Origin: an uncultured Candidatus Saccharibacteria bacterium
GTDB taxonomy: Bacteria; Patescibacteriota; Doudnabacteria; UBA920
DNA length: 64,000 nt
Direction: 5' to 3'
Assembly: GCA_964631145.1 (NCBI GenBank)
Contig: CAZVXT010000001.1
Location: forward strand, 319,361 to 383,360
Shown: piece by piece, positions 28,087 to 51,610 of the stretch
Position numbering within the stretch: the stretch's first letter is position 1
Layout of the letters: each line of letters begins with the position of its first letter
Program-made: the position numbers and the translations under genes
The notes under the pieces: model-generated
Told to the model about the DNA's origin: nothing
Databases searched by the model: none
The model's input: the letters and a program-made list of their open reading frames with translations, nothing else

Positions 28087-29445
28087 ATGGATGGAGTTCA
28101 GTGGCCAAGTGGTCAATCATTACCTTCAAATTACAACCCGCCATATCGTCCTCCTCAAAATGATGATTTGGTAGATGAAAATCAAGAAATTAATACACAA
28201 AATCAGCCAGCTGATTCTTTTTTGGTAGAAGAAGATAATTTATCTTTGCCCCCAGAGCAGTTTGTGCCTCCAGTTTATGAAGATCCTATATTAGGACCAA
28301 GTAATATTTTGCCTAGTTGGCAAATGGAAGAAGATTCTTTGCCGGAAGAGAATATCTCAACATTTACAGATAGTGATAAGGATCAATATAATTCTGTACA
28401 AGAAGAATCTAAAAATATTTTACCAAGTAGTCTTTATAATAACTCTCAGTTTGTAAAAGAAGATTCTGTGCAAAAAAATCAGGCATCGTTTGCAGAAGAA
28501 AATGTTTCTGCTCCTGCTATTTTCGCAAGCCCATTTTCACAAAATCTTAGCGCTAATAAAGAAGAAAAACAAGATCAAGTTAATAATATCAACACTTCTG
28601 AGACAGAAACTGGTGATAAAATGCATTACGCTGGCAGCACGATTAAAGAAATCGAATTAGCAAAAGTTGTTGCTAACCCTTATCAACCAAGAAGGCAATT
28701 TAATCAGGAGGCATTAGAAGAATTGTCAGAATCGATCAAGGAGCATGGAGTAATTCAGCCTTTAGTAGTAACAGAAACTCCGAATGGATATGAATTAGTG
28801 GTAGGTGAAAGGCGTTTTCGTGCTTCTGTGTTAGCAGGACTAAAAAAGGTTCCTGCAATTATCAAGCATTCGATGGAGGATCAAACTAAGCTAGAAGTAG
28901 CTTTGATTGAAAATATTCAAAGACAAGAACTTAATCCTATTGAAGAGGCTTTGGCTTATAATAAGCTCTTAAAAGAATTTAGGATGAGTCAGGATCAGGT
29001 TGCTCAAAAAGTAGGAAGGTCACGTCCTTCTGTGGCAAATACAGTGAGATTATTAAATTTGCCAGCAGAAGTACAAAGAGCAATTATCGAAGGGCGAATT
29101 ACCGAAGGGCATGGAAGGGCAATTTTAGGTTTACCGGATTATGAAAGGCAAATGCAGTTATTTCAATTGGTCTTGGACCAAGGTTTAAATGTTCGTCAGG
29201 TTGAAAATAAAGTCCGGGAAATATTAAATCGCAAAAAAAATAGTGAAGAAAATATTCCAGATCCTAAGCTTGTCGCTATGGAATCTGATTTACGTGGTAA
29301 ATTAGGCACTCAAGTAAGAATTTATAAGCAAGGTAGAGGTGGTAAAATTACCATAGAATTTTTTAGCGATGAAGATTTGGATGATATTATTTCTAAGATT
29401 TCTCATGAAAATAAATTGTCTGGAGAAAATTATCTTACTGTCTAA
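28087..29445 (+). CDS. parB: ParB/Spo0J family partition protein with a 190-aa low-complexity N-terminal extension
   Basis: GERRFRAS, the HTH region QDQVAQKVGRSRPSVANTVRLL and LIENIQRQELNPIEEA. No parA is adjacent. Confidence 0.85.
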   Translation: MDGVQWPSGQSLPSNYNPPYRPPQNDDLVDENQEINTQNQPADSFLVEEDNLSLPPEQFVPPVYEDPILGPSNILPSWQMEEDSLPEENISTFTDSDKDQYNSVQEESKNILPSSLYNNSQFVKEDSVQKNQASFAEENVSAPAIFASPFSQNLSANKEEKQDQVNNINTSETETGDKMHYAGSTIKEIELAKVVANPYQPRRQFNQEALEELSESIKEHGVIQPLVVTETPNGYELVVGERRFRASVLAGLKKVPAIIKHSMEDQTKLEVALIENIQRQELNPIEEALAYNKLLKEFRMSQDQVAQKVGRSRPSVANTVRLLNLPAEVQRAIIEGRITEGHGRAILGLPDYERQMQLFQLVLDQGLNVRQVENKVREILNRKKNSEENIPDPKLVAMESDLRGKLGTQVRIYKQGRGGKITIEFFSDEDLDDIISKISHENKLSGENYLTV

Positions 29446-29536: not shown

Positions 29537-29962
29537 ATGGATAAGATTTTTTTTCAAAAATTATCAGAAAATGCCACTTTGCCCACGAGAGGAACTAAAG
29601 AATCTATAGGTTTGGATTTGTATTCTGCGCACGATCTGGTTATTAATCCTGGGAAATACCAATTAGTTAAAACTGGATTGGCTTTAGCGGTTCCGGCAGG
29701 ATATTATGGGCGCATTGCTGCCCGTTCTGGTTTGGCTGTAAAATTTGGTATAGATACTTTGGCTGGTGTGGTAGATAGTGATTATAGAGGTGAGTTAGGG
29801 GTGGTGTTGATAAATCATGGAAGTCAAGATTTTATTATTAATGTTGGTGACAGAATTGCCCAGTTAATTATAGAAGCTGTGGCATTTTTAGAACCAGAAT
29901 GGAACAATGATCTGTCTGATAGTGCACGAGGACAAAATGGTTTCGGGAGCACTGGCAAATAA
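29537..29962 (+). CDS. dut: dUTP diphosphatase
   Basis: AGYYGRIAARSGLAVKFGIDTLAGVVDSDYRGELGVVLINHG contains the dUTPase motifs. Confidence 0.92.
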   Translation: MDKIFFQKLSENATLPTRGTKESIGLDLYSAHDLVINPGKYQLVKTGLALAVPAGYYGRIAARSGLAVKFGIDTLAGVVDSDYRGELGVVLINHGSQDFIINVGDRIAQLIIEAVAFLEPEWNNDLSDSARGQNGFGSTGK

Positions 29963-29965
29963 TTT

Positions 29966-31726
29966 ATGAAAATATTTAAAAAAATAACTCAATTATCAGC
30001 TTTATTATTACTTGGGTTTGTATTTATATACTCTCCTGTATTTGCTCAAAATGACGAAAATAATACAGAGATTGGTACGGGTATAACAGATGCTTATGAG
30101 AATATAGAATCAATTAGAAATTACGATACTAGTATTGATGTATCACCTGACGGCACTATGTCTGTTGTTGAAAATATAGAGTATGATTTTGGTAATTTAG
30201 AAAAACACGGGATATACAGAAATATTCCTTATGCCTATAAAGCCCGTGGGGGTAACTTTAAGTTACGTTTTTCTGATTTTAAAGTGACCGATCCTAACGG
30301 TGTTGATTATAACTTTGATAAATATACAGAGGGTAGTGAGATTGTTTTAAAGATTGGAGATCCTGACAAAACTATTACCGGGCGACATGTATATGTTATT
30401 AGTTATAAAGTAAAAAGAGCTATAAACTTTTTTGCAAATGACCATGATGAATTGTATTGGAATATCATAGGCACTGGATGGCAGGTGCCTATATTAAAGG
30501 CGCAATCAACGGTTAATATGCCGGCAAACATTACTAAATCGGTATGTTATACAGGTATTGTTGGTTCCACTGCATCAAATTGTAGCATTCTCCCGCAAAG
30601 TGATAATCAGGTGATTGTCCGCAGTAGTAGCGTTTTGAATGCATCAGAAGGTTTAACGATGGTTATTGCAATTCCTTTTGGTAGCATTGCGCAGCCAACC
30701 ACAGCCGAAAAAATTAAAGACATAGTATACGATAATGGTATATTGGCTTTGCCTTTAGTTATTTTTATCATCATGTTTTTAATATGGAGGAAAATCGGTC
30801 GCGATGCTAAAGGTAGAGGAGTTATTGTGGCTCAGTATGAGGCTCCGGAAGGATTGTCTCCTATGCAAGTCGGAGCTTATTTAACAGGACGGGTAAGCAA
30901 TATCCATCTTTCAGCGGAGATCATTAATTTGGCTGCAAATGGTTATATCAAGATTAATCGTCTAGAAAAGAAAAGTTTTTTTTGGTCCCAGCCAGATTAT
31001 GAATTTATCAAAATAAAAAAACCGACTAAAATATATCATAATAGTGTAAAATTATTTGAAAGCTTATTTCAGACAGGCGATAGTGTTAAACTTTCGGATT
31101 TGAAAGATGATAAATTATTTATTGCAGATATAGAAAAAGTAAAAGATGCCTTAACTGAAGAAATGGATAAGGCTAAAATTTATAAGTACAATCCGTTTAA
31201 TGTTAGGTTTTTAATTATTTTTGTAGCATTCTTTTTATTTGTGTTCGGGTTGATACTGTTAGGTAGTTTGTTTGGGGCTTATGGAGTTTTGTCGGTATTT
31301 ATATCCTTTATTATTGCTTTAATATTTGGAATTATTATGCCTGCTCGAACTAAATTAGGGGCAGAAATACAAGAACTAATTTTAGGGTTTAAAAAATATT
31401 TAAGCGTTGCAGAGGCGGATAGGATAAATTTTCATAATGCACCCGAAAAAACACCAGAAAGATTTGAAGCTTTGTTGCCATTTGCGATGGCTTTAGGTGT
31501 GGAAAAACAATGGGCAAAGCAATTTGAAGACATTTATAAACAAAATCCATCATGGTATAGCGATGGTTCTGGGAATATGTTTAGTGCTACGGCTTTTGCG
31601 AGTTCTTTAACAGAAGTAAGTTCTAATTTTCAATCTACTATGACTACTTCCTCAGATGGGGGCAGTGGATTCTCTGGGGGTGGAAGTGGTGGTGGAGGAG
31701 GCGGTGGCGGAGGAGGAAGTTGGTAA
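29966..31726 (+). CDS. DUF2207-like membrane protein
   Basis: Signal peptide, a large extracytoplasmic domain, TM helices, and a C-terminal Gly-run (GGSGGGGGGGGGGSW) typical of the family. Confidence 0.65.
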   Translation: MKIFKKITQLSALLLLGFVFIYSPVFAQNDENNTEIGTGITDAYENIESIRNYDTSIDVSPDGTMSVVENIEYDFGNLEKHGIYRNIPYAYKARGGNFKLRFSDFKVTDPNGVDYNFDKYTEGSEIVLKIGDPDKTITGRHVYVISYKVKRAINFFANDHDELYWNIIGTGWQVPILKAQSTVNMPANITKSVCYTGIVGSTASNCSILPQSDNQVIVRSSSVLNASEGLTMVIAIPFGSIAQPTTAEKIKDIVYDNGILALPLVIFIIMFLIWRKIGRDAKGRGVIVAQYEAPEGLSPMQVGAYLTGRVSNIHLSAEIINLAANGYIKINRLEKKSFFWSQPDYEFIKIKKPTKIYHNSVKLFESLFQTGDSVKLSDLKDDKLFIADIEKVKDALTEEMDKAKIYKYNPFNVRFLIIFVAFFLFVFGLILLGSLFGAYGVLSVFISFIIALIFGIIMPARTKLGAEIQELILGFKKYLSVAEADRINFHNAPEKTPERFEALLPFAMALGVEKQWAKQFEDIYKQNPSWYSDGSGNMFSATAFASSLTEVSSNFQSTMTTSSDGGSGFSGGGSGGGGGGGGGGSW

Positions 31727-32352
31727 TGAAGTTTATAAAGTTAGGACACTCATGTGTGTTAATAGAAGATGGTCAGAATAAAATACTAATTGACCCGGGT
31801 ATTTATAGTAGTGTACAAAACATTGAACCGGATATAATTTTGATCACTCATGTTCATACAGATCATATAGATCTGCAAAATAATTTGCAATTATTACAAA
31901 GGTGCTCAAATATTATTACCAACACCGAAGTTTCTGCTGAGTTAAAGAAACATAATATTGATGCGGTTGTGGTAGAAGATGGACAGTCTATTAATGTTGT
32001 TGGTTTTGAAATAAAGGGTATCGGTAGAGATCATGCTATAATTCATTCTCAGTTGCCAAAATTTATGAATACCGGGTATATGATTAATAATAAGATTTTT
32101 CATCCCGGCGATGCCTTAACTGTACCGGAGAATACTAATCTCGAAGTCTTGTTATTACCTATAGTTGCACCTTGGAGTAAGATATCAGAAACTCTAGATT
32201 ATATGGATATGGTAAAGGCAAAGACTTTTATACCAATCCATGATGGGTTTCTAAATGATGGCGGGGCATTTTATAGATTTGCCAAAATGTGGGCGGAAAA
32301 AAATAATTCTAAATTGTTAGAAGTAAAAAACTTTCAAACTTATGAGCTATAA
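31726..32352 (+). CDS. MBL-fold metallo-hydrolase
   Basis: ILITHVHTDHID (HxHxDH). The ATG overlaps the preceding stop (TAATG). Confidence 0.75.
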   Translation: MKFIKLGHSCVLIEDGQNKILIDPGIYSSVQNIEPDIILITHVHTDHIDLQNNLQLLQRCSNIITNTEVSAELKKHNIDAVVVEDGQSINVVGFEIKGIGRDHAIIHSQLPKFMNTGYMINNKIFHPGDALTVPENTNLEVLLLPIVAPWSKISETLDYMDMVKAKTFIPIHDGFLNDGGAFYRFAKMWAEKNNSKLLEVKNFQTYEL

Positions 32353-32806
32353 TTTTATATTAATTCCTTTGATTTCAATTGCTGTGGCTTATCTGTATAA
32401 AAAATATACAGCTAGTAATTTTTTAAAATGGTATCAATCATTAAAAAAACCTTTGTGGTTACCAGGCGATAAAACTATATATGAGGCGTTGTTGTTTGTT
32501 TACGCCTTATTTGTAATAGGTGTTATGTGGTTTTGGAATATTCCAGCTTTTACTTGGTGGCATTACATTTTTTTGGCAGTTATTTCAGTATTCATACTCT
32601 CAAGTTTGATGTGGGTTAAAATGTATTTTGAAAAGAATAGCCCTAACGCTGCAAAAAAATATTCCAACTATATAATATATTCTTTAGTTATATTGTTAGT
32701 GGTAATAGTGGTTAAATCTTTAATAACAATACCTTTAGTAATGCCGTTTATGTTAACCGTATATTTAATTTTAAAGTCAGCCCATAAAACACATGAAAAT
32801 AAGTAA
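32342..32806 (+). CDS. hypothetical membrane protein
   Basis: 154 aa with four TM segments. It overlaps neighbouring genes. Confidence 0.55.
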   Translation: MSYNFILIPLISIAVAYLYKKYTASNFLKWYQSLKKPLWLPGDKTIYEALLFVYALFVIGVMWFWNIPAFTWWHYIFLAVISVFILSSLMWVKMYFEKNSPNAAKKYSNYIIYSLVILLVVIVVKSLITIPLVMPFMLTVYLILKSAHKTHENK

Positions 32807-33890
32807 AAACATAATCAAAATTATTTTTGTTTTTTTAATCGTCGGATTTTTTATTCCTCATTATTTTGTTTCGGCTCATGTGCCTGTGATGGAGCCGATA
32901 GTTGAGTCTCAGTTATCTAATTACGCTTTATATTTTAAAGCTGTAAAAATAGATGACCCTATAAAAAAATCTCAAGCAATATATGGGAGACTTTCAGGTC
33001 TTGATGAATTTGATGTATATGCATTTACAGCAGAATCTGACGCACAAATCCCAGTTTCTGTATTAGTTCCTAATTTAAAAGCTAATAGTTTATTGCAACC
33101 TCAGTTATACATTGTTGCTAAAGATTTAACTGACACGGATAATAGTTTGCAATTACCTTTCGAACTACCTCAGGGTTATAAAGTAAAAAAATATAATTGG
33201 GATCAACAAAATAAATTAACTTTTGAACCATATAGCCTAGAACGTTTGAGATCAAGCAAGGAAGTATCATTAAATGTTCATAAAAATCAAAATTATTTTT
33301 TGGTAGTTAAAGATTCTAATCATCAAATAGGGAATTATGTTTTAGCAGTAGGGGATGCAGAAAATTTTTCTGGAATTAGTCCGGTACATTTATTTTCTAA
33401 TTTAGCATTAATAAAATTAGGTTTATATAGCAATACCAATATTCCTTGGTTAAATATATTGGGCTTATTTCTTTTTATTGCTGGTTTTATTGTAGGTTTG
33501 GGTGCAGTAACAGTGATTGATTTTATAGGTTTTTTGGGAAGAAAATCATCTTATTGGACTGAAGTTGCTATTAAAGCCCACCATGTTACTAAACCTTTAA
33601 TTTGGCTTGGGATATTATTATTGGTCGTTGGAGCTGGTATTACTTATAGAGATAGTTGGCTAAGCGAGGTAGCTTTATTTCAATCAATTTTAATTTTAAT
33701 ATTAATAATTAATGGTTTGTTTTTAAGTTTTTATATTAGTCCTAGATTAAATAAACTGGAAAAGGATGGCGAGGCGGATAAATTATTGCCAAAAAATATG
33801 CAATTAAAAATCTTTATCTCCTTTATAATTTCATTTCTTGGATGGTGGTTAAATCTAGTATTTTTGGTCTGGTATATATTAATTCAATAA
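32793..33890 (+). CDS. hypothetical membrane protein (signal peptide, soluble domain, C-terminal TM bundle)
   Basis: 365-aa ORF. Confidence 0.55.
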   Translation: MKISKNIIKIIFVFLIVGFFIPHYFVSAHVPVMEPIVESQLSNYALYFKAVKIDDPIKKSQAIYGRLSGLDEFDVYAFTAESDAQIPVSVLVPNLKANSLLQPQLYIVAKDLTDTDNSLQLPFELPQGYKVKKYNWDQQNKLTFEPYSLERLRSSKEVSLNVHKNQNYFLVVKDSNHQIGNYVLAVGDAENFSGISPVHLFSNLALIKLGLYSNTNIPWLNILGLFLFIAGFIVGLGAVTVIDFIGFLGRKSSYWTEVAIKAHHVTKPLIWLGILLLVVGAGITYRDSWLSEVALFQSILILILIINGLFLSFYISPRLNKLEKDGEADKLLPKNMQLKIFISFIISFLGWWLNLVFLVWYILIQ

Positions 33891-33893
33891 TGT

Positions 33894-35372
33894 ATGGATA
33901 AAAAATTAAACATTGTTATCATAGGTTCTGGATTCGGAGGACTGTCTTCTGCTGCGCTGCTTGCTAAAGATGGACATAAGGTTACAGTTTTAGAAAAAAA
34001 TGATATGCCAGGAGGAAGAGCTAGGGTTTGGAAAAAGGATGGATTTGTTTTTGATATGGGTCCATCTTGGTACATGATGCCAGAAATTTTTGATAATTAT
34101 TTTGCAAAATTTAACAAAAAAACTTCTGATTATTATTCCATTAAGAGGCTTGATCCTTCATACAGAGTTTTTTTTGGTAAAGATGATTTTGTAGATATAC
34201 CAACTGATGTAAATAAAACTAAAGCTTTATTTGAAAGTATTGAAGCAGGTAGTGGTCAAAAGTTGCAAGAATATTTGGATCAAGCTAAATATCAATATGA
34301 GGTTTCGATGAAGGAATTTATTTATAAAGATTATAATTCTATTTTCGATCTTTTTAATTGGCGAATGCTTTCTGAGGGACGCAAATTGCATGTATTTGAT
34401 ACATTGGCTAAATTTACTCGTAGATATTTTAAGAGTGAAAAGCTTCGCAAAATTTTAGAGTATAGTATGGTATTTCTGGGTGGCGCTCCTAATAATACTC
34501 CGGCAATATATTCTGTTATTAACCATGCGGATTTGAATTTGGGTGTTTGGTATCCGATGGGTGGTTTTGGAAAAGTAGTAGAATCTTTTGTAAAGTTAGG
34601 CGATCAATTTGGGGTGAAGTATATTTATAACAGCCCTGTGACTGACTTCGAATATAAAGATAATAAAATTGTTTCTGTAAAATGTGGTGATCGTTTTTAT
34701 GATGCAGATGTGGTCATAAATAATGCTGATTATTATCACATGGACCAGCAGCTTTTAGATCCTAAATTTAGAGATTATTCTCCAACTTATTGGGGCAAAA
34801 GAACTGTCGCTCCATCTGCATTTATTTTGTATGTCGGGTTAAATAAAAAGTTAAAAAATATTGATCACCATACTTTATTTTTAGATGAAGATTGGGTAGA
34901 ACACTTTAACACTATATTTAGTAATCCTGACTGGCCTCAGCACCCTTCGTATTATGTTTGCTCCCCGTCAGTTTCGGATCCGTCAGTAGCTCCGGAAGGT
35001 TATGAAAATTTGTTCTTCTTGGCACCTATTGCCTCTGGATTAGAAGATAACGAAGAAATACATAAACACTTAAAAGAAAATATTTATAGCAGATTCGAAA
35101 ATATTACAGGTCAAAATATTAGAGATAGTATAGTAGTAGAAAGAATTTTTTCTGGGCAAGATTTTACAGAAAGCTATAATGCATTTAAAGGAACTGGTTT
35201 GAGTTTGGCTCATACATTGATGCAGACTGCATATTTTCGTCCGAGAATGAGATCAAAAAAACTCTCTAATCTTTATCATGTTGGGCATTATACTCAACCC
35301 GGTGTGGGGGTTCCTATGGTCGTTATTTCTGGAGAAATAGTAGCTAATAAAATTTTGAATGAACAAAAATAA
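33894..35372 (+). CDS. crtI: phytoene desaturase family FAD-dependent oxidoreductase (CrtI/CrtN-like)
   Basis: Rossmann IVIIGSGFGGLSSA, GGRARVWKKDGFVFDMGPSW, and C-terminal VGHYTQPGVGVPMVVISGEIVAN. Confidence 0.85.
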   Translation: MDKKLNIVIIGSGFGGLSSAALLAKDGHKVTVLEKNDMPGGRARVWKKDGFVFDMGPSWYMMPEIFDNYFAKFNKKTSDYYSIKRLDPSYRVFFGKDDFVDIPTDVNKTKALFESIEAGSGQKLQEYLDQAKYQYEVSMKEFIYKDYNSIFDLFNWRMLSEGRKLHVFDTLAKFTRRYFKSEKLRKILEYSMVFLGGAPNNTPAIYSVINHADLNLGVWYPMGGFGKVVESFVKLGDQFGVKYIYNSPVTDFEYKDNKIVSVKCGDRFYDADVVINNADYYHMDQQLLDPKFRDYSPTYWGKRTVAPSAFILYVGLNKKLKNIDHHTLFLDEDWVEHFNTIFSNPDWPQHPSYYVCSPSVSDPSVAPEGYENLFFLAPIASGLEDNEEIHKHLKENIYSRFENITGQNIRDSIVVERIFSGQDFTESYNAFKGTGLSLAHTLMQTAYFRPRMRSKKLSNLYHVGHYTQPGVGVPMVVISGEIVANKILNEQK

Positions 35373-36189
35373 CTACGCTCGCAGTATTTTTAAAAAAAGC
35401 AGCACAACCTTTTTTATATCTACATTATTTTTTCCTCGTGATAAACAAAATGATGTATTTGATTTGTATGCATTTGTAAGAATATTTGATAATTTTGTAG
35501 ATACAATTCCTCAGCAGTCAGATGATTATTATTCTTTAAAGAAGCACTATTATCAATCTTTGGCATCAGGTCATTGTGAGAATCAAATTATAAATAATTT
35601 TATAAATTTACAAAACCATTATAAGTTTGATCAACCTTGGATAGATGCATTTTTTGTTTCCATGGAAATGGATCTTAAAGATTATAAGTACCAACATTTC
35701 TCCGATACAGAAAAATATATGTTTGGATCAGCTGAAGTAGTTGGTTTAATGATGGTAAAAATTTTAGATTTATCTGAGCAATCATATTTATACGCACAGT
35801 TATTAGGAAAAGCTTTTCAGTACATGAATATGATTAGAGATATTGCAGAAGATCAAACATTTGGTAGAACTTATATTCCACTTGATATTTGCTTGCAGTA
35901 CGGTCTATCAGATTTATCATATATAACGGCACAGCACAATCAAACTGGTTTTGTAAAATTAATCAGGCAAGAAATAACTAGATATTATAGTATTGTTGAA
36001 GAAGCGGAAAAAGGGTTTAAGTTTATTCCTAATAACTATCTGGTTGCGATAAAAACTGCAGTAGACTTATTTAATATGACTATGAATAAGATTTATAAAG
36101 ATCCAATGATCGTTTATAAGACAAAAGTTAAGCCAACAAAATTGCAGGCAACTGCATATGGGATTAAAAATTATATTACGCATGCATAA
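35359..36189 (+). CDS. squalene/phytoene synthase family protein (CrtB/CrtM-like)
   Basis: Asp-rich motifs YAFVRIFDNFVD and NMIRDIAEDQTFGRTYIP. Confidence 0.8.
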   Translation: MNKNNYARSIFKKSSTTFFISTLFFPRDKQNDVFDLYAFVRIFDNFVDTIPQQSDDYYSLKKHYYQSLASGHCENQIINNFINLQNHYKFDQPWIDAFFVSMEMDLKDYKYQHFSDTEKYMFGSAEVVGLMMVKILDLSEQSYLYAQLLGKAFQYMNMIRDIAEDQTFGRTYIPLDICLQYGLSDLSYITAQHNQTGFVKLIRQEITRYYSIVEEAEKGFKFIPNNYLVAIKTAVDLFNMTMNKIYKDPMIVYKTKVKPTKLQATAYGIKNYITHA

Positions 36190-37237
36190 ATTTTTTGAAA
36201 ATAATAAACTCAAATTAGCCAAAAAAATTGATACAGTCATAACTGGAGATATGGCAAAGTGGGCTAAAATTAATCTATGGGCAAATAATTCATTGCCTTT
36301 ATTAGCAGAGTTTTCTAAACGGGGGAAATTAATAAGAGGCTTATTAGTTTTATTAGCTGCTCAAGAGGGAACAAAAACAAGTCCCGCAGCTTTGGATATT
36401 GCTTCTTGTATAGAAATTATGCATTCTAGTATTTTGGTGCATGATGATATTATGGATCGAGATCTTTTGAGAAGAGGGAGTCCAACTTTACATGCTTACT
36501 TTGCTGATAGATCTGTTAGTAAGCTTGGTAAGGAATCTCTTCATCATGGAGAAAGTTTGGCGAGTTGCATTGCAATCATTGGTTATTTTATTGCAATGGG
36601 TAGATTTTCTAAAATCAAAGATAAAGATCAAAAAGATTTATTAATCAATCTATATTCAGAAGAGATGGCTTTATTGGGTATGGCTCAGATGTCCGATGTG
36701 ACTTTAGCAGAGGATGATAAGGCTTCAGAGTCAGATGTGTTAAAAGTTTATGAGCAAAAGACTGGTAGATATACATTCGGGCTTCCGCTTTTGTCAGGGT
36801 TTATCTTGGCAGGAAAATATTCAAAAAGACTGCATAAGCAAGTGTTGGAAATGTCTATTCATCTTGGGATAATTTTTCAATTAAAAGATGATATGTTGGG
36901 TATATTTGGAGATTCTAATCAAACAGGTAAGTCTGTGGGTGGTGACATTAGAGAACGAAAAAAGACATTGCTGTATTTTGAGCTTATAAAAGCAAGTACC
37001 AACTTAGAAAAGTCTAAATTATTAAGTTTGTATAACAGTGGCAAACCTTTAAGCGAAATCAATCAAAAATTTGTTTATAGTCTTTTTAAAAAATATGATA
37101 TTGAAAAAAAAGCTGAAGCAAGATTGGACTTTGAATATCAAAAAGTAAACAAATTTTTACCTTCGCTTCCATTTTCTAAAATAGGGGAAGAAGCTTTTAA
37201 AGATCTTGTTAAATATTTATTAACTCGTAGTAAATAA
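36158..37237 (+). CDS. polyprenyl diphosphate synthase (GGPP/FPP synthase family)
   Basis: Two DDxxD motifs, ILVHDDIMDRD and FQLKDDMLGIFGD. Confidence 0.82.
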   Translation: MGLKIILRMHKFFENNKLKLAKKIDTVITGDMAKWAKINLWANNSLPLLAEFSKRGKLIRGLLVLLAAQEGTKTSPAALDIASCIEIMHSSILVHDDIMDRDLLRRGSPTLHAYFADRSVSKLGKESLHHGESLASCIAIIGYFIAMGRFSKIKDKDQKDLLINLYSEEMALLGMAQMSDVTLAEDDKASESDVLKVYEQKTGRYTFGLPLLSGFILAGKYSKRLHKQVLEMSIHLGIIFQLKDDMLGIFGDSNQTGKSVGGDIRERKKTLLYFELIKASTNLEKSKLLSLYNSGKPLSEINQKFVYSLFKKYDIEKKAEARLDFEYQKVNKFLPSLPFSKIGEEAFKDLVKYLLTRSK

Positions 37238-38073
37238 TGAATTTAAGTACATTTATAAAAATTTCCAGACCGAGATTTTGGTTATATAGTGCTGGGACTT
37301 TCTGGGTCGGGGCGATAGCAGGAGCTACTTACTTATCAGATTTATATGATTTTAGGCTGCTACTTTTTTTGGCATATTTTTTATTACCTGCAAATTTATT
37401 TATTTACGGAGTTAATGATTTGGCTGACGGAGATACTGATCAATATAATGATAAGAAAAATGTTCAAGAGCATTTACTTAAGCAAACAGAGCGTAGATTT
37501 TTGATTTTAACTGTTGTTCTATCTTTGCTATTAGGATTTGTTGTGATATATTTTTCTCCAAATTTATTAACCCAACAATTAATTTTCATATTTCTATTTT
37601 TAGCTTTTTGGTATAGTGTCCCACCATTAAGATTTAAAGCTAAGCCTATCGTAGACGCATTGAGCAATATTCATTATGCAGTAATTGGTTTTGCATCTTA
37701 TGCTTATTTTACTAATCATCTTCCCCCATGGTGGAGTATTATTGCGGCGCTTCTGTGGACTGCTGCCATGCAAATATATTCTGCAATTCCAGATATTCAA
37801 AGCGACAAACAGGCAAAATTGTATACAACAGCGATTTGGTTAGGAGAAAAATACTCCATGTATATTTGTTTAATTTTTTGGCTGACATGTAGTATCTTAT
37901 TGTATATAAATTTTTCAACTCTTTTATCTTTGTTATCTTTGTTGTATCCAGTTTATATTATTTGGCAGTTGGTAAAAAAAATTCCCATCAAACAAGTTTA
38001 CTGGTTTTATCCTTACATTAATGCCATCATGGGTTTCGTGTTATTTTGGTATTTGGTCTTCCAAAAAATATAA
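37237..38073 (+). CDS. UbiA family aromatic/isoprenoid prenyltransferase
   Basis: NDLADGDTDQ (NDxxDxxxD), nine TM helices. Confidence 0.75.
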   Translation: MNLSTFIKISRPRFWLYSAGTFWVGAIAGATYLSDLYDFRLLLFLAYFLLPANLFIYGVNDLADGDTDQYNDKKNVQEHLLKQTERRFLILTVVLSLLLGFVVIYFSPNLLTQQLIFIFLFLAFWYSVPPLRFKAKPIVDALSNIHYAVIGFASYAYFTNHLPPWWSIIAALLWTAAMQIYSAIPDIQSDKQAKLYTTAIWLGEKYSMYICLIFWLTCSILLYINFSTLLSLLSLLYPVYIIWQLVKKIPIKQVYWFYPYINAIMGFVLFWYLVFQKI

Positions 38074-38077
38074 AATA

Positions 38078-38105
38078 AAAAAGTCCCAATATTGGGACTT
38101 TTTTA
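38078..38105. terminator. bidirectional terminator
   Basis: Stem AGTCCCA-ATAT-TGGGACT flanked by an A-run and a T-run, between the UbiA gene and rpmB. Confidence 0.6.
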
Positions 38106-38273
38106 TTTACTGCGAGCTTTCATGCAGCTTGTGCAAGCTTTTACTCTGTTACCATCTTCGCTTCTCATCCATTGTAAGTTTGGTTGTAAACGCTTAATAG
38201 AAGAGCGCATACTGTGAGAACGTTTGATTGTTTTAGAGTAAGTCTTACCGCAGACGGTACACATTCTTGGCAT
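38103..38273 (-). CDS. rpmB: 50S ribosomal protein L28
   Basis: 57-aa reverse-strand ORF MPRMCTVCGKTYSKTIKRSHSMRSSIKRLQPNLQWMR..., an L28 signature. Its size is below the ORF-track cutoff. Confidence 0.85.
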   Translation of the reverse strand: MPRMCTVCGKTYSKTIKRSHSMRSSIKRLQPNLQWMRSEDGNRVKACTSCMKARSK

Positions 38274-38382
38274 ATAGTTATAACTTTTTGCTAAACCTGC
38301 GGCTCTTGCGTCAGGCTTTAATCAATAGTAAAATACTTGATAAGTATAATATACTTTATCAAAAAAAGCAAGGGAGGAAATT

Positions 38383-45841: not shown

Positions 45842-45913
45842 ACTTGAATGAAGAGATTGACATTTTGTTGAATTAAATTATAATACACAAGCTAAATAGC
45901 AAAGGGGGATTTT

Positions 45914-46609
45914 ATGGAAATATATTCTAAAGGGTTAGAAATTGAACAATGCGTTGTTTATTTAGAGTCTAAAAAAATTAGAGTTAATCCTGAATTAAAA
46001 GAAGATGCCAGTTTTATTAAAAATAGTTTAACTCGAAAAGTAGTTATAAATATAATTATTGGGTTGCTTATTACTGGGATCGCAGGATATTGGAATCAAT
46101 ATTCAATACCTTATTTTTTAGTTGTGTGGTTAACGCAAGTCATTTTTACATCAATTATTTTTCAACCGATTGTCGAAAAAAAACTTAAAAAATATAGGAT
46201 AGTTGAAATGTATGAAGTTTTATCCTTACCGCTCATGAATGCTATTTTAGAGCATAATAAAAGGTTGAATAATTTGATTGATTCTATAAACTTAAGTTTA
46301 ACTTTTGATCAAACTCAAGATATGTCTGCTACTAAACAATTAATTAATCAAATCAATCAAGGTAGAGAAGTTATAGATAAAAATTTTGATAAACTATCTA
46401 GAATTAACGAAAGATATTCTTCTATTAGAAATTTAGATAAAAATACTATCGTCGATACTATGTTTGAGCTACCATTGTTAGTGGTTAATAATGAGGTTTA
46501 TTCTCATGAAGATAACGAGCTTAATTTATTAGTGGAAACTATTAATCAAGAAGTTGATCTTGTAGTAAAAAATGAAATATCTGCTCCTAAGCAGTTAAAA
46601 AGTCTTTAG
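45914..46609 (+). CDS. hypothetical membrane protein (two TM segments plus a coiled-coil region)
   Basis: GGGGGA lies upstream. Confidence 0.55.
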   Translation: MEIYSKGLEIEQCVVYLESKKIRVNPELKEDASFIKNSLTRKVVINIIIGLLITGIAGYWNQYSIPYFLVVWLTQVIFTSIIFQPIVEKKLKKYRIVEMYEVLSLPLMNAILEHNKRLNNLIDSINLSLTFDQTQDMSATKQLINQINQGREVIDKNFDKLSRINERYSSIRNLDKNTIVDTMFELPLLVVNNEVYSHEDNELNLLVETINQEVDLVVKNEISAPKQLKSL

Positions 46610-46717
46610 AAATAAAAAATGGACTAACAGAAATGTTGGTCTTTTATTATACTAGACAAACTTCTTATTTTTATATATAATGTTTTATCAGTTTAGCTGA
46701 TAAAAAGGAGGACTTTT

Positions 46718-47266
46718 ATGTCAAAAGATACCGAGTTAGAAGATGTAAAAAAAGAATGGGACGCGGCTGGTTTCTTGATAAAAACAGTAGTAGTCTTAGT
46801 AGTCTTAGTAGTTTTAGTTGTTTTATCTCTAGTAGGATTATTATTATTTCGCATAACTTGTGTTACCTTCGTGGAAAACTATGAGCTTGGCTATATGTAT
46901 GATTCTACTAATGGTGAAACCAGGTTACTAAACCGCACCGGTTATATAACGCATTATCCATTGGTTAACTCAGTTCATACAATTGACTTGCGTCCGATGC
47001 AAGTATGTATGAATGCAAATGCCAGAGTTTTAAATTGTAAATTAGTTCGATTTAATCCTGCCGGCTTTGAAGATTTTATTGCTCGTCATGGTAGAAATAA
47101 TTATGATGGCGGCAATTGTTCTACCGGAGGTAGTTCATCTAGTGGAAGCTGCGGTAATTTAAATGAAATACTAAGAAGTTATGCTTTTGAGGCAAATCCT
47201 CAATATTCGTTTTTTACTTTTGAAAACCCTAGTGGTGCTGATGTAAAAGCAAATGGTGGAAAATGA
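46718..47266 (+). CDS. hypothetical membrane-anchored protein, paralog 1
   Basis: AAGGAGG lies upstream. It has an N-terminal TM anchor and shares a Cys-containing domain of about 110 aa with the next gene. Confidence 0.6.
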   Translation: MSKDTELEDVKKEWDAAGFLIKTVVVLVVLVVLVVLSLVGLLLFRITCVTFVENYELGYMYDSTNGETRLLNRTGYITHYPLVNSVHTIDLRPMQVCMNANARVLNCKLVRFNPAGFEDFIARHGRNNYDGGNCSTGGSSSSGSCGNLNEILRSYAFEANPQYSFFTFENPSGADVKANGGK

Positions 47267-47712
47267 AAAGAAATAAAATATTAAAATATGTCGCATATAC
47301 TTTTTTAGTGATTTTAATTTTAACATTTGCTTATAAGCTTTTCTTTCACCATCAAGATGTTTACGAAGTAGGTTTGGCAAGAAATTTATTTACCGGCGAA
47401 ACATACTTACTTGATAAGCCAGGTTTTTACAGAAACTATCCTTGGGTCTGGGTTGCAATTGCAGAAACTAGACCAACTAGGGTTTGTGTTACAAGCACTG
47501 CAAGGTCTTATAATTGCAAGTTGGCACAATTTAAACCTGAACATTATCAAGAATTTTTGGAAACTGAAGGGTGGAGGTTTTATTGGCTATCTAATAGAAT
47601 TTCAATTAACTTTGGATATGATGATGAATATAGAGGTTTCAAAGATATTCTAAGAGGATATGCTTTTGGTAATAAAAAGTATAATTTTATAGAGGTGTCT
47701 GACTCTCCATAA
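47263..47712 (+). CDS. hypothetical membrane-anchored protein, paralog 2
   Basis: Alignable with 46718..47266 over YE.G...GET.LL...YP.V...P..VC....R..NCKL..F.P...F...ILR.YAF. It overlaps that gene's stop. Confidence 0.6.
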   Translation: MKRNKILKYVAYTFLVILILTFAYKLFFHHQDVYEVGLARNLFTGETYLLDKPGFYRNYPWVWVAIAETRPTRVCVTSTARSYNCKLAQFKPEHYQEFLETEGWRFYWLSNRISINFGYDDEYRGFKDILRGYAFGNKKYNFIEVSDSP

Positions 47713-47745
47713 AAAATAGCGTGCTAATAATTAGCACGCTTTTAT
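47711..47745. terminator. bidirectional terminator
   Basis: 11-bp palindrome AGCGTGCTAAT-A-ATTAGCACGCT. Confidence 0.6.
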
Positions 47746-48225
47746 TTAATAATTTTTTTGTGGGGGGAGAACTATATCTCCGATTTTTATTATCCCACTT
47801 GTTAATACGTGGGCGGTTAAGCCTCCACAGTCAAAAAATTCTTCAGCAAAATTTACTGGTTTGTTTGATAGCTTACTTGGTCTGGTGCAAGGTTCGCAGT
47901 ATTTGTATCCAAAAAATTTAACATCACCGATAGTAAATTCTTTGTTAATACAACGCATTAATTCTATTCCTTCTATCAATAAATTTCTTCTTGTTTCGTA
48001 AAACCAGAAAGTTTTATTTTTAAAGAAGTGTGCGTTCATTAAGGTTACTTGCCCGTTCCAGGTGCCTGTTTTTTTAGCATTAAGCTTGTTAAAACTACCA
48101 ATCCCTGCTGCATAGCGATCCCCTTGAAGTCCTTTACCTTCCATGCAATAAACTTCCAGTAATGCTTGCATTGGCGCTCCTGCTTTAGGAGCGATGCAAA
48201 TTTGCTTTAACGTTCCTTTAATCAT
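47746..48225 (-). CDS. MOSC domain-containing protein
   Basis: GDRYAAG, QVTLMN, NLLIEGIEL and the Cys-containing C-terminal block (CEPCTRP). Confidence 0.6.
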   Translation of the reverse strand: MIKGTLKQICIAPKAGAPMQALLEVYCMEGKGLQGDRYAAGIGSFNKLNAKKTGTWNGQVTLMNAHFFKNKTFWFYETRRNLLIEGIELMRCINKEFTIGDVKFFGYKYCEPCTRPSKLSNKPVNFAEEFFDCGGLTAHVLTSGIIKIGDIVLPPQKNY

Positions 48226-48553
48226 TATGATCCTCCAAAGTATTGTTATCAGCTTCGGGTTTTTCTAAGACAATAAAGCAGTGTGGGCAATTTTGGATTT
48301 CGTAAACTTTTTTATTGCTTGTTCGAATAGTGATAAATAACCATTTGCTTTTGTAATATATGACCTCTCCAGCAAAAAGTTGCTTATCCGATTCTCCATA
48401 CCAAATGCTAATATTATCATGACTTCTTGCTTTAAAAACTGTGCATTCATGAGTTATAAAATTATTTTCAGAATCTTTTATAATATCCGACGCATCTATA
48501 TCATCTAGCAATTTCATACGAACGTTTTGCATATTTCTATTCTCCTTTTTCAA
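48218..48553 (-). CDS. hypothetical protein
   Basis: 111-aa ORF. Confidence 0.5.
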   Translation of the reverse strand: MKKENRNMQNVRMKLLDDIDASDIIKDSENNFITHECTVFKARSHDNISIWYGESDKQLFAGEVIYYKSKWLFITIRTSNKKVYEIQNCPHCFIVLEKPEADNNTLEDHND

Positions 48554-48562
48554 GATTTATAT

Positions 48563-48919
48563 TTAAACTCGTTGTGTTTCTTTGGATAATACTTTAGTTT
48601 TTACTTTTGTATAAATCCACACATCAGCTTCAAAATCCATTTCATATACTCTATAGCTGTTTTTATCGCTTTGTAATTTCCATTTTGAATTTTCAAAATT
48701 ATGTTTCTTCCACCAGGGTAAACAATTTTCACCATTAACAATTTTATTTAATTGTTTTCTGGCAAAATATTTTGTTGGATATGGACCATGTGTTTTGGAT
48801 GCTATCGGTTTTTTTGTCTCAGCGCCTTTGCATGGTTCATCTAATAAGACATCTACATATTCTTCACGAACGTAATATTCGGTAGTAACTAGAGCTACTG
48901 TGGTAACAATTTTCTGCAT
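48563..48919 (-). CDS. hypothetical protein
   Basis: 118-aa ORF. GGAGG lies upstream. Confidence 0.5.
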   Translation of the reverse strand: MQKIVTTVALVTTEYYVREEYVDVLLDEPCKGAETKKPIASKTHGPYPTKYFARKQLNKIVNGENCLPWWKKHNFENSKWKLQSDKNSYRVYEMDFEADVWIYTKVKTKVLSKETQRV

Positions 48920-49043
48920 AAAACCTCCTTTTTGAATAACTTAATTTATCATCTTTAGCAGCATTAGTCAACGCGGTGTTTACCATGTTTTAAAAAATAT
49001 TTATTATTTAAATAATAAAAAACCAGCTAAATGCTGGTATATT

Positions 49044-49379
49044 TTAGTATAAACTAGAGTTTGGAGAGAAAGGCAGAAAATTAGATTTACCATCCATAAC
49101 ATAAGTAGTTTTAACAATCTCTTTTATATTAATAGATGTTTTAATAATTACGGTATCACCGTCTTGGCTTTGTGATAACATGGTTCCGTTTTTAATTCCG
49201 ATAGTAACAGTAACAGTGTTGTCTGTTCTAGAGACTTCATCTATTTTATAGCAATCAATAGGTTTGTCTTGATCTTTTAAATATATTTTACAAACGATTT
49301 CATGGTTACCTTGCTTGTTGGTTTTGTTTATATCTACAGTTGGTGTATTTGTTTGAATTTCTTCTAGTATATTTAACAT
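49044..49379 (-). CDS. hypothetical protein
   Basis: Start at MLNILEE (complement of 49377-49379) after GGAGGATAAT. Confidence 0.5.
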   Translation of the reverse strand: MLNILEEIQTNTPTVDINKTNKQGNHEIVCKIYLKDQDKPIDCYKIDEVSRTDNTVTVTIGIKNGTMLSQSQDGDTVIIKTSINIKEIVKTTYVMDGKSNFLPFSPNSSLY

Positions 49380-49461
49380 ATTATCCTCCTTTAGAAGATA
49401 TAAATTATCATGTATTTGGGTGTTTGTCAAGTGTGACTTTTTTATATTAATTGGTTAATAT

Positions 49462-50070
49462 GTGGTTATGAGCTTACAAGAATTATTAGATTTAACCAAA
49501 AAATTTGGACAAACAGTAGTGGTTTCTGAAAGCGGGGATGTTAAAGCGATTTTGTTATCCCCAGAAAAATACATAGATTTTGCTAAAGATAAAAAGGTAG
49601 AACGAGCTCCTTTAAATAATAATCAAAGTGCTAATTATGATTCCGCATTGGGACAAAAGCAAGGCATGCCTGTTCCTACAGATTTAGAACCCGAAGAGGA
49701 TGTTATTGCAGAACATGAACAACAAGATTTGCCAGTTGGTTTAGATTTTGATATTTCTGATAATGATTTTAATAAAGGTTTGTTTAAGAGTGTTGGTCTA
49801 AATAATGATGAAAATCTCGAAACTTTTAATGTTAATGATTCTAGTGAAATTGAAGAAAATATAGTAGACAGAGCCTCTTCCGCAGAACCGCCAAAACCAT
49901 TAAGTAGTTTATTAACTAAAAGAGCTGAAAGTTTATTTATGGACAAACCTTTTGGCAGGGTAAATACTCCGGAGTTTGATATGCGCAGCGAAGTAGTAGA
50001 TCCAAATTTTGGTAAGCCAGCTAATGTAGATGATGATGAAGAAATCCAAACCAGCTTTGAGAATATTTAA
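49462..50070 (+). CDS. protein with a Phd/YefM-like N-terminal domain and a long acidic disordered tail
   Basis: LQELLDLTKKFGQTVVVSESGDVKAILLSPEKY resembles the YefM antitoxin fold. It is followed by a D/E-rich tail of about 150 aa. Confidence 0.45.
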   Translation: MVMSLQELLDLTKKFGQTVVVSESGDVKAILLSPEKYIDFAKDKKVERAPLNNNQSANYDSALGQKQGMPVPTDLEPEEDVIAEHEQQDLPVGLDFDISDNDFNKGLFKSVGLNNDENLETFNVNDSSEIEENIVDRASSAEPPKPLSSLLTKRAESLFMDKPFGRVNTPEFDMRSEVVDPNFGKPANVDDDEEIQTSFENI

Positions 50071-50148
50071 TATATGATTATAAAAAGATTCTAGACATCC
50101 TAGGATCTTTTGGTTATAATGATCTATAAAATTACTTTAGGAGGTAGT

Positions 50149-50589: not shown

Positions 50590-50595
50590 ACAAAA

Positions 50596-50624
50596 AGCAC
50601 TAGAAATTTCTAGTGCTGTTTTTA
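50596..50624 (+). terminator. intrinsic terminator
   Basis: Palindrome AGCACTAGAAATTTCTAGTGCT followed by T5. Confidence 0.6.
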
Positions 50625-50641
50625 TTAAAAACTTAATTTAT

Positions 50642-51145: not shown

Positions 51146-51195
51146 AATTTACCTCCATAAAATTTTCCTTAGTATATGTTGAGGACAAGGAAAAG

Positions 51196-51495: not shown

Positions 51496-51610
51496 AACAT
51501 TACCTCCTTTTTGGCAAGTTACTTCGAGTATACTCTTTTTATAAAAATTTGCAAATAAATTTGTTATAAAATAAAAGGCGGAAGATATATTCTTCCGCAT
51601 TGGTTTAACG

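Follow-up and report, generated by a model that had tools for sequence, protein, structure and literature searches.

What might a bacterium with a reduced genome make with four adjacent genes of isoprenoid biosynthesis? The question is raised by a 64,000-nucleotide stretch of DNA, referred to here as the window, which spans positions 319,361 to 383,360 of contig CAZVXT010000001.1 in the assembly of an uncultured Candidatus Saccharibacteria bacterium (GCA_964631145.1). Positions 33894-38073 of the window encode, on the plus strand, a carotenoid desaturase, a head-to-head prenyl synthase, a polyprenyl diphosphate synthase (IDS) and a prenyltransferase of the UbiA family. The original prediction took these genes for a carotenoid-type isoprenoid cluster, and the Pfam and NCBIfam identities that we obtained agree with this. 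In our view the four genes probably make up a cassette, complete in itself, for a C50 carotenoid of the bacterioruberin type, carried by a Saccharibacteria genome and with a pathway that most likely ends at bisanhydrobacterioruberin (BABR). The earlier framing of the product as a C30 or C40 carotenoid misses this likeliest outcome: the desaturase passes the NCBIfam CrtID equivalog, and the synthase has a threonine at the position of CrtM Phe26.

Gene identities in the cassette

The four genes are crtI/crtD (33894-35372, 492 aa), crtB (35359-36189, 276 aa), ids, which is crtE/idsA-like (36158-37237, 359 aa as an open reading frame, ORF), and the UbiA-family gene lye (37237-38073, 278 aa). Translation of the ORFs verified the coordinates and the common strand of these adjacent genes; all four are intact and full-length, they overlap one another, and together they take up 4.2 kb. 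Each of the products scores above the Pfam gathering scores. The motifs on which the original prediction rested are present in the translations, namely GGRA...DMGPSW in the desaturase, DNFVD and RDIAED in the synthase and NDLADGDTD (an NDxxDxxxD motif) in the UbiA protein, whose second aspartate-rich motif is DIQSD. Two DDxxD motifs had also been claimed for the IDS; the first is there (DDIMD), but the second reads DDMLG, that is DDxxG, a variant common to 20 of the 25 cassette-linked synthases that we aligned. A 63-aa antisense ORF at 33884-34075 on the minus strand ('MYQDGPIS...') was considered as a gene and rejected as a shadow of the region of crtI that encodes GGRA...DMGPSW; homologous shadow ORFs lie antisense to crtI in 10 other loci.

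The desaturase passes the NCBIfam equivalog NF058655 (CrtID, bifunctional phytoene desaturase/3,4-desaturase) with 696.3 bits against a cutoff of 640, matching positions 1-478 of 478, and the next-best equivalog gives 257 bits against a cutoff of 500. It also passes TIGR02734 (crtI_fam; 488 bits, cutoff 238), matches the Pfam domains Amino_oxidase (E 3e-35) and NAD_binding_8 (E 1.5e-16), and carries IVIIGSGFGGLS as its N-terminal Rossmann motif for binding flavin adenine dinucleotide. On NF058655 the syntenic CrtD of haloarchaea scores 769 bits and the desaturase of the Patescibacteria group bacterium UBA926 scores 705 bits, and the window protein is 45-47% identical to the product of the haloarchaeal crtD gene that adjoins lye and cruF. 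The NF058655 family corresponds to c0507 of Haloarcula japonica, which belongs to the cluster c0507-lyeJ(c0506)-cruF(c0505) and was first called CrtD, before knockout and complementation assigned it the functions of both CrtI and CrtD (PMC11946383). Tests of enzyme function by complementation or assay have been published for c0507 and d1086 (PMC11946383). We predict that the window desaturase is likewise of the bifunctional phytoene/carotenoid 3,4-desaturase type.

The UbiA-family protein had been thought equally likely to be a lycopene elongase, MenA or a digeranylgeranylglyceryl phosphate (DGGGP) synthase. We find that these options are far from equal. The protein matches Pfam UbiA (E 1e-21) and passes NF009516/PRK12875 with 267.3 bits (cutoff 205), the next model giving 119 bits, whereas none of the NCBIfam models for MenA, UbiA, MqnP and DGGGP synthase is passed, with scores of 17-46 bits against cutoffs of 102-414 (MenA 17.4 against 102, ubiA_proteo 21.8 against 275, MqnP 38 against 375 and DGGGP synthase 19-23 against 296-353). 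The UbiA proteins encoded between crtD and cruF in Haladaptatus and Haloferax (L083, L086) score 452 and 440 bits on NF009516, and the products of the flanking genes match CrtID (769 bits) and the CruF equivalog. Several close homologs bear the JGI name 'lycopene elongase/hydratase (dihydrobisanhydrobacterioruberin-forming)'. The window and haloarchaeal proteins have in common the signature motifs of lycopene elongase/hydratase (Lye), which are SRPRFW.Y, N..LYG.ND..D...D..N.KK, YS.PP.RFK and M(H/Q)..SAIPDI..D, and which are missing from the UbiA paralogs of the same loci. Identity of the window protein is 37-39% to haloarchaeal Lye and 15-22% to the UbiA paralogs, from which the Lye-like family splits in a neighbour-joining (NJ) tree with a support of 75/100. 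Of the 52 family columns with at least 90% conservation the window protein keeps 49, the deviations being P150I, H179Q and L208M; at residue 179 most of the family (75 of 82 members) has His, and 6 Thorarchaeota-type sequences have Gln, as in the window. Its single sequence match in the PDB, the archaeal UbiA homolog 4tq3, is weak (E 4e-5). Taken together, these features suggest that the protein is a lycopene elongase/1,2-hydratase homolog of the PRK12875 subfamily, and we refer to it as Lye.

A profile scan for this UbiA subfamily, with one genome per species, yielded 80 loci, onto which we mapped the window proteins. In nearly all of the ~80 loci a CrtI-type gene adjoins the UbiA gene, as in the window, where the two lie 1.9 kb apart in one predicted operon. 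CrtB is present in ~70 of these loci and IDS in 31, and beside the cluster stand CruF (40 loci) and a GT2 glycosyltransferase (12 loci).

The head-to-head synthase matches Pfam SQS_PSY with 147.5 bits (gathering score 26; E 8e-43), and all 68 cassette-linked homologs that were compared have the aspartates of DNFVD and DIAED. The NCBIfam CrtB equivalogs are not passed (86, 81 and 74 bits against cutoffs of 480-550), and the best NCBIfam match is HpnD with 111 bits (cutoff 279), HpnE giving 36 bits (cutoff 283). Haloarchaeal CrtB is likewise without a passing NCBIfam equivalog and has a weak HpnD match first; because bona fide haloarchaeal CrtB behaves in this way, the HpnD-first result is uninformative. 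Among PDB chains the best matches are 5iys, which is named 'Phytoene synthase' and keeps Phe at the site discussed below, and then CrtM/dehydrosqualene synthases. In the PDB alignments Thr22 of the window synthase aligns with Phe26 of Staphylococcus aureus CrtM, a residue that we take to restrict CrtM to C30 substrates and that is changed from F to A in 3ae0 relative to wild-type CrtM. The C30-type chains 5iys, 8is6 and 4e9u have Phe at this position, and the cassette homologs, haloarchaeal CrtB included, have Ser, Thr or Ala in 67 of 67 cases. Thr22, together with the small residue in all 67 homologs, thus supports a C40 phytoene synthase, and we predict that the window protein is a CrtB of this type.

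The IDS matches Pfam polyprenyl_synt with 159 bits (E 1e-46). Its true start is likely M9 at 36182, giving 351 aa, and its relatives have 350-352 aa. Positions -4 and -5 before the first aspartate-rich motif are occupied by Ile and Ser, neither of them aromatic, which fits a predicted product of C20 or longer. The best NCBIfam matches are short-chain and geranylgeranyl diphosphate (GGPP) synthases, all of them under cutoff (GGPP_syn 105.6 against 500, IdsA 103 against 468), and the best PDB matches are 6kd7 and the GGPP synthase 3lk5. GGPP is the predicted product and is what the genomic context leads one to expect. Given that no equivalog is passed by CrtB or IDS, the assigned lengths of C20 and C40 rest on this context, on one pocket residue and on the lack of aromatic residues before the first motif.

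A predicted C50 product and its rivals

In the haloarchaeal scheme, as outlined in PMC11946383 with reference to Yang et al. 2015, GGPP is converted to phytoene by CrtB and phytoene to lycopene by CrtI/D, after which Lye (C5 addition and 1,2-hydration) and CrtI/D (3,4-desaturation) act at both ends to give BABR, which CruF hydrates to bacterioruberin. If the cassette follows this scheme, the IDS would make GGPP (C20) from isopentenyl diphosphate (IPP) and dimethylallyl diphosphate (DMAPP), CrtB would join two GGPP molecules into phytoene (C40), and the CrtI/CrtD flavoenzyme would carry phytoene to lycopene with O2 (or a quinone) as electron acceptor. Lye would put a C5 unit from DMAPP on each end of lycopene and hydrate the 1,2 bond, and the same CrtI/CrtD enzyme would introduce the 3,4 and 3',4' double bonds. 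Without CruF, the end product would be a BABR-like C50 carotenoid with 13 conjugated double bonds and two tertiary hydroxyls. Such a pigment would span the membrane and could serve as a rigidifier or fluidity regulator, as well as an antioxidant or photoprotectant.

The last step of the scheme, catalysed by CruF (PF04240), appears to be missing near the cassette. A tblastn search of the 64-kb window with haloarchaeal CruF gave no match, a 40-sequence CruF profile run against all six-frame ORFs of the window gave a best E of 0.07, and in the closest relatives no CruF lies within 8-10 kb of the cassette. A database search, with the low sensitivity of a word-based candidate step, likewise gave no CruF on contigs that match this genome or its relatives in length. 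As there is no CruF in the window, we predict the BABR-like C50 diol as the product; a distal copy of cruF elsewhere on the 654-kb contig is possible, in which case the product would be bacterioruberin. We also note fusions of CruF with a NUDIX domain annotated as type-1 isopentenyl-diphosphate isomerase, which occur in Acidobacteriota (Pyrinomonadaceae, Chloracidobacterium) and elsewhere; the fusion ORFs are ~430 aa long (L064, L068, L069, L071, L082; proteins P0204, P0208, P0214-P0217, P0222, P0223, P0227), and the fusion physically ties the C50 hydratase to DMAPP supply. Among the window ORFs we found no lycopene cyclase, blh or rhodopsin, so the cassette offers no answer to the missing retinal source of Saccharibacteria rhodopsins (PMC9296517).

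A survey of freshwater bacteria of the Candidate Phyla Radiation (CPR) found, outside Gracilibacteria, C10-C20 isoprenoid steps only and no C5 pathway (PMC9166423), and no genes of the methylerythritol phosphate (MEP) or mevalonate pathway are present in the 64-kb window. With no C5 pathway seen, the IDS and Lye would probably draw their IPP and DMAPP from outside or from a route not yet recognised. In a sister genome a NUDIX gene lies near the cassette; it was considered as a type-1 IPP isomerase and set aside, the protein being MutT-like instead. BacA, an undecaprenyl-diphosphate phosphatase, and PAP2 are encoded in the window, so polyprenyl phosphates are in use in the cell in any case. As to the electron acceptor, CrtI of Pantoea uses O2 as its terminal acceptor, which quinones can replace (PMC3382138). 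In a CPR cell without a respiratory chain the desaturase would probably use O2, and hence we infer an oxic niche.

Several observations weigh against a C50 product. CruF, which stands beside the cassette in 40 loci, was not found in the 64-kb window, and no NCBIfam equivalog was passed by CrtB or the IDS. Lye has Gln at residue 179, where 75 of 82 family members have His. Outside Gracilibacteria the published CPR survey saw no C5 pathway, and the window holds no MEP or mevalonate gene. Strict anaerobes carry the same UbiA subfamily, and an O2-dependent desaturase is puzzling in such organisms. Lastly, the functions of the CPR enzymes are predicted from sequence.

How far these points favour another chemistry has to be judged against the genes themselves. 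It is conceivable, if unlikely, that the cassette stops at an acyclic C40 or C45 carotenoid, with a UbiA protein that is a hydratase only, a one-end elongase or inactive. The lack of CruF in the window and the H179Q change at a nearly invariant position would both suit such an outcome, and isopentenyldehydrorhodopin (IDR, C45) and lycopene are known as haloarchaeal intermediates (PMC11946383). Yet Lye keeps 49 of its 52 conserved columns and both aspartate-rich motifs, a whole clade of Thorarchaeota shows the same H/Q variation and keeps the cluster, and the desaturase belongs to the CrtI/CrtD type, which is active on elongated intermediates. We also think it rather improbable that the cassette is stranded or host-dependent, in the sense that the cell has no IPP and DMAPP of its own and either draws C5-C15 diphosphates from a host or is losing the genes to decay. 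All four ORFs are intact, the unit is kept in at least six related genomes, and with BacA and PAP2 the cell handles polyprenyl lipids anyway, which speaks against stranding or decay even though the survey outside Gracilibacteria (PMC9166423), the lack of MEP and mevalonate genes in the window and the MutT-like nature of the sister-genome NUDIX protein all point in that direction. Host dependence would, moreover, fit alongside a C50 cassette and is no replacement for it.

The remaining chemistries have far less in their favour. A C30 pathway (CrtM/CrtN, staphyloxanthin-type) or a squalene/hopanoid pathway (HpnCDE-type) is very unlikely: the synthase does have HpnD as its best NCBIfam match, and 5iys (with Phe at the CrtM-Phe26 site) followed by CrtM/dehydrosqualene synthases as its best PDB matches, but both Hpn scores fall well short of their cutoffs, haloarchaeal CrtB shows the same weak HpnD-first pattern, and Thr22 takes the place of the Phe of the aligned C30 synthases. 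The desaturase, for its part, passes the C40-type CrtID equivalog, and the cassette encodes an IDS of its own in which aromatic chain-length residues are missing. We find it harder still to believe that the UbiA protein is a quinone (MenA/UbiA/MqnP) or DGGGP-synthase prenyltransferase within a cluster that makes a housekeeping polyprenyl lipid. The corresponding NCBIfam models stay far under their cutoffs and PRK12875 is passed, identity is well below that to haloarchaeal Lye when the protein is compared with UbiA paralogs, a CrtI-type gene adjoins the UbiA gene in nearly all loci and CrtB is present in most, and the window holds no men or ubi genes; what can be set against this is general membership of the UbiA fold in Pfam and the PDB match to 4tq3. 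A C50 carotenoid of the BABR type is thus the product that we continue to favour.

Distribution, relocation and genomic setting

Cassettes of the kind predicted here to make a C50 carotenoid are widely distributed. The CPR loci among the 80 belong to Saccharibacteria, Magasanikbacteria, Gracilibacteria, Falkowbacteria, Daviesbacteria and Levyibacteriota, and the archaeal loci to Woesearchaeota, Thor-, Hermod- and Promethearchaeota, Bathyarchaeia and haloarchaea, with Methanobacterium, Methanosarcinales and Methanomassiliicoccales among the methanogens. Further bacterial loci come from Acidobacteriota, Armatimonadota, Chloroflexota and metagenome-assembled genomes (MAGs) labelled Gammaproteobacteria. 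The original prediction had remarked that such a cluster is unusual for a minimal organism, which is fair as far as it goes, but the cassette recurs in CPR bacteria and DPANN archaea and was published for Patescibacteria in 2023 (PMC9948471).

In the Saccharibacteria clade, which has six members and NJ bootstraps of 49/50 for CrtI, 50/50 for IDS, 91/100 for UbiA and, weakly, 21/50 for CrtB, the order crtI-crtB-ids-lye is invariant, six or more related genomes keep the cassette as a unit, and the genomic contexts in which it lies number at least four. One of these, seen in the window and in UBA926/GCA_022842405, places it 3' of three genes for a metallo-beta-lactamase (MBL)-fold hydrolase, a TspO-family protein and a 365-aa membrane protein that we call mem365. 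In GCA_964597895 and GCA_964594755 it lies between fusA and tuf, and there a cation ATPase gene directly follows MBL-TspO-mem365. Two further contexts are seen at L008 and L010. That one clade occupies such varied contexts indicates that the four genes have been passed on jointly and have moved as one block. A search of a plasmid collection returned five haloarchaeal records only, all annotated 'prenyltransferase', and thus gave no sign of a plasmid-borne cassette.

Some of the places in which the cassette is found have features of their own. What lies between fusA and tuf varies within this lineage: two related genomes (L003, L006) have the carotenoid cassette there, and the window (45900-52290, ~6.4 kb) has a dozen short ORFs in both orientations, with hardly any matches to Pfam. 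P-type cation/heavy-metal ATPases are encoded a few kb from the cassette in several unrelated loci, some of ~770 aa (L009, L010, L012, L015, L028, L075, L085; the L010 example starts with a CxxC metal-binding motif) and others of 882 aa, of the Cation_ATPase_N/C type, that belong to the Saccharibacteria backbone (L089/L093); their proximity may mark variable accessory regions. Four-gene cassettes also occur in MAGs labelled Gammaproteobacteria or Pseudomonadales, mixed among those of CPR bacteria in the UbiA tree (L015, L020, L024, L042, L056, L057, L075; L028, L054, L060), and L042 additionally carries a homolog of the C-terminal domain of mem365 with 57% identity. These cassettes could reflect real transfer or a problem of binning or labelling.

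A CrtI/D-CrtB-Lye cluster, often with CruF, is also present in strict anaerobes, among them the complete Methanobacterium genomes NZ_CP187261 and NZ_CP166866 as well as Methanosarcinales, Methanomassiliicoccales, Thor-, Hermod- and Promethearchaeota and Bathyarchaeia. The anaerobe loci are L019, L022, L025-L027, L029, L031, L033, L037-L041, L044, L046-L048, L052, L053, L055, L058, L059, L062, L065, L067, L070, L072, L076-L081 and L084, and in most of them the UbiA match is near position 8001. One would not expect such organisms to make carotenoids with a desaturase that depends on O2 or a quinone, and among the papers that we searched there was none on this cluster in strict anaerobes. Given its occurrence there, the product of the family may not always be bacterioruberin-like.

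On the prevailing view, CPR bacteria synthesise hardly any of their own lipids. A conserved, intact operon for a C50 carotenoid would be one of the few lipid traits that they could control themselves, and it raises the questions of where the C5 precursors originate and what accepts the electrons of the desaturase in cells without a respiratory chain. One might speculate, and we do so tentatively since we doubt the proposal more than we believe it, that crtI/D-crtB-(ids)-lye is a cassette complete in itself, a 'C50 membrane rivet' that is exchanged widely and has spread across CPR bacteria, DPANN archaea and strict anaerobes (methanogens, Asgard archaea, Bathyarchaeia), that Saccharibacteria build the rivet from host-derived C5 units to stabilise a membrane of otherwise scavenged lipids, and that its presence marks lineages exposed to O2, light or cold. 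Were this so, the C50 carotenoid would be one of very few membrane lipids that Saccharibacteria build themselves. If the pathway is active, resonance Raman or pigment signatures might also provide a handle for sorting uncultured Saccharibacteria.

Upstream of the cassette, tightly packed genes with Pfam matches to dut, DUF2207 and an MBL-fold hydrolase (29537-32352, plus strand) are followed on the same strand by genes for a divergent 154-aa membrane protein of the TspO/MBR family (32342-32806) and for mem365 (32793-33890), both of them backbone genes of the lineage. From dut to the UbiA gene there extends, as originally described, a co-directional array of 8.5 kb (29537-38073), with nine genes separated by 3-nt gaps or overlapping by 1-32 nt. 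Co-transcription of this array would be in keeping with its packing, and dut, DUF2207 and MBL possibly share a transcript with the cassette. The link that had been drawn between the cassette and these upstream genes holds as regards adjacency and packing but is positional only: in relatives the cassette is found elsewhere while MBL-TspO-mem365 stays, so the upstream genes are backbone and not members of the pathway. In the relatives the DUF2207 slot is taken by VIT1/NUDIX or MazG/VIT1. The window copy of TspO scores 18.4 bits on PF03073 (TspO_MBR), for which the gathering score is 24; all four of its four syntenic orthologs match PF03073, with E up to 0.01 and 2.9e-21 at best, and are 29-31% identical to it.

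The protein mem365 has a signal peptide, a beta-sandwich ectodomain and a 4-helix bundle. Its family comprises 72 proteins, mostly from CPR bacteria, with a highly conserved C-terminal 4-helix domain (motif GLGAVTVID..GFLGR.S.YWTE..AHKVTKPLIW) and a near-invariant Ala-His-x-Pro at the predicted signal-peptide cleavage site, and the mature N-terminus may accordingly be a His. The predicted structure, with a pLDDT (predicted local distance difference test) score of 89.9, combines a beta-sandwich like those of PPC and collagen-binding domains with a generic 4-helix bundle. We considered mem365 as a carotenoid enzyme or a substitute for CruF and rejected it, since the model is generic only and the gene is immobile when the cassette moves. 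In other organisms TspO is fused to the C-terminal domain of mem365 (P0187, P0190-P0192), and at one such fusion (L091) there are no carotenoid neighbours. A standalone mem365 C-terminal domain is encoded 5 nt after lye in the Magasanikbacteria cluster cruF-crtI-crtB-ids-lye-X (L012, 8819-9277), and the association of this domain with a carotenoid operon is possibly meaningful.

Downstream, the cassette ends at a bidirectional intrinsic terminator (38073-38108, both strands), a perfect 36-nt palindrome between an A-run and a T-run that lies directly 3' of the lye stop codon and terminates both the crt array and a convergent rpmB-like gene. Folded as RNA, the palindrome has a free energy of -19.5 kcal/mol on the plus strand and -19.0 on the minus strand (z -5.6 and -5.2), and none of 200 shuffled sequences was as stable (0/200). 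The rpmB-like ORF (L28, 56 aa; 38109-38279, minus strand) matches TIGR00009 with E 9e-10 and 38.8 bits against a cutoff of 48.3; it occupies what appears to be an intergenic gap and is shorter than the 60-aa threshold of the ORF listing. A promoter scan of the window did no better than on shuffled sequence, with 68 found and 60.7 expected.

We see no sign that the cassette is foreign to the genome in which it lies. The exact window proteins are found on a 653,896-bp NCBI contig and on Logan contigs, and two of the latter, assembled from short reads, end and begin at the palindrome, exactly after the UbiA gene. This break is what might suggest contamination or a chimeric join, a possibility to which we attach almost no weight: a perfect palindrome is expected to break a short-k-mer assembly graph, which explains the break, and the two contigs overlap and continue the sequence of the window. 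GC content at third codon positions in the cassette is 0.23-0.27, as in the rest of the window, and cassette and other window genes agree in codon usage (r 0.96) and tetranucleotides (r 0.97). The independent assembly GCA_022842405 (L093), which is close to UBA926, has the same backbone and the same arrangement of the cassette. We reject contamination, chimerism and very recent transfer on the strength of the native composition and the independent assembly, and contamination, which the original prediction had named as a ground for dismissing the cluster, does not serve as one.

The host itself is well placed. Elongation factor G is 90.5-91.5% identical to that of Saccharibacteria/Patescibacteria MAGs, in keeping with the reduced genome originally supposed, S12 is 86% identical to that of MAGs titled Candidatus Saccharibacteria and Patescibacteria group bacterium UBA926, and the synteny M50 - two hypothetical genes - rpsL - rpsG - fusA is common to the window and these Saccharibacteria/UBA926 MAGs; the host is therefore a CPR bacterium of the Saccharibacteria lineage. 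The genome is AT-rich, as had been said, with a window GC content of 0.28-0.41 per 2 kb, and the rest of the window is given over to housekeeping genes, including those for polynucleotide phosphorylase, tRNA-guanine transglycosylase, tRNA synthetases, serine hydroxymethyltransferase, BacA, PAP2 and ParB, rpsL-rpsG-fusA, tuf and the S10 operon. We note that ParB (28087-29445) is extended at its N-terminus by ~160 aa of low complexity in which Pro, Gln, Asn, Glu and Ser abound; the ParB proteins of relatives have 315-359 aa and are without this extension, and alignments with them span the C-terminal 280-293 residues only.

Comparison with known systems

The position of a TspO-family gene two genes upstream of crtI brings to mind Rhodobacter, in which the carotenoid gene cluster includes TspO/CrtK. 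In the lineage of the window the TspO gene stays in place when the cassette sits elsewhere, and so the adjacency indicates no conserved functional linkage; the window copy also falls under the Pfam gathering score. A second likeness is to the decaprenoxanthin clusters of actinobacteria (Corynebacterium), which encode the lycopene elongase CrtEb and the CrtYe/Yf cyclase. Those clusters resemble the cassette in combining crtE, crtB and crtI with an elongase of the UbiA family, by which lycopene is extended with C5 units, and they differ from it in their small heterodimeric cyclase genes, of which Pfam scans of the neighbouring ORFs in the window found none.

The closer relationship is with the bacterioruberin genes of haloarchaea. 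As in the Haloarcula japonica cluster, the genes for the desaturase and the elongase are co-directional, their products pass the same NCBIfam equivalogs, and the Lye motifs are common to both. The window proteins are nonetheless only 45-47% (CrtI/D) and 37-39% (Lye) identical to their haloarchaeal counterparts, and crtB and ids lie between the two genes in the window, whereas in haloarchaea crtB lies on the other strand and is divergent, with 27% identity. No cruF was found in the window, and the organism that carries the cassette is a bacterium whose genome is that of a reduced symbiont, and no halophile.

Bacterial bearers of the same family of C50 carotenoids are also known. Pink Arthrobacter species have a bacterioruberin cluster (PMC9122864; Flegler and Lipski, cited in PMC9948471), for which a role in the fluidity of membranes in the cold has been proposed, and this role is a model for the possible function of the window cassette. 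Compared by description, Actinobacteria differ from the window in having their own pathway to isoprenoid precursors and a clustered cruF.

A further comparison is with genes from Lake Baikal. In Patescibacteria from this lake, a Saccharibacteria genome among them, lyeJ, crtD and cruF were reported in 2023, with cruF unlinked to and far from lyeJ and crtD in the Saccharibacteria genome, with polyphyletic trees, and with the hypothesis that the genes serve adaptation of membranes to cold (PMC9948471). That gene-level report means that bacterioruberin genes in Patescibacteria were already known, and the Lake Baikal genes share with ours the phylum-level group and the inferred pathway. Compared by description, they are scattered or on separate reads, whereas in the window and its relatives we find a tight four-gene operon with its own crtB, IDS and terminator. 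What we add is the identification of the Lye-type and CrtI/D-type proteins, the evidence for a C40-type CrtB, and the description of a four-gene unit that relocates and ends in a terminator; in addition, contamination is rejected and the unit is set apart from its upstream neighbours. The broad distribution of this unit suggests that bacterioruberin-type chemistry is no speciality of haloarchaea or actinobacteria.

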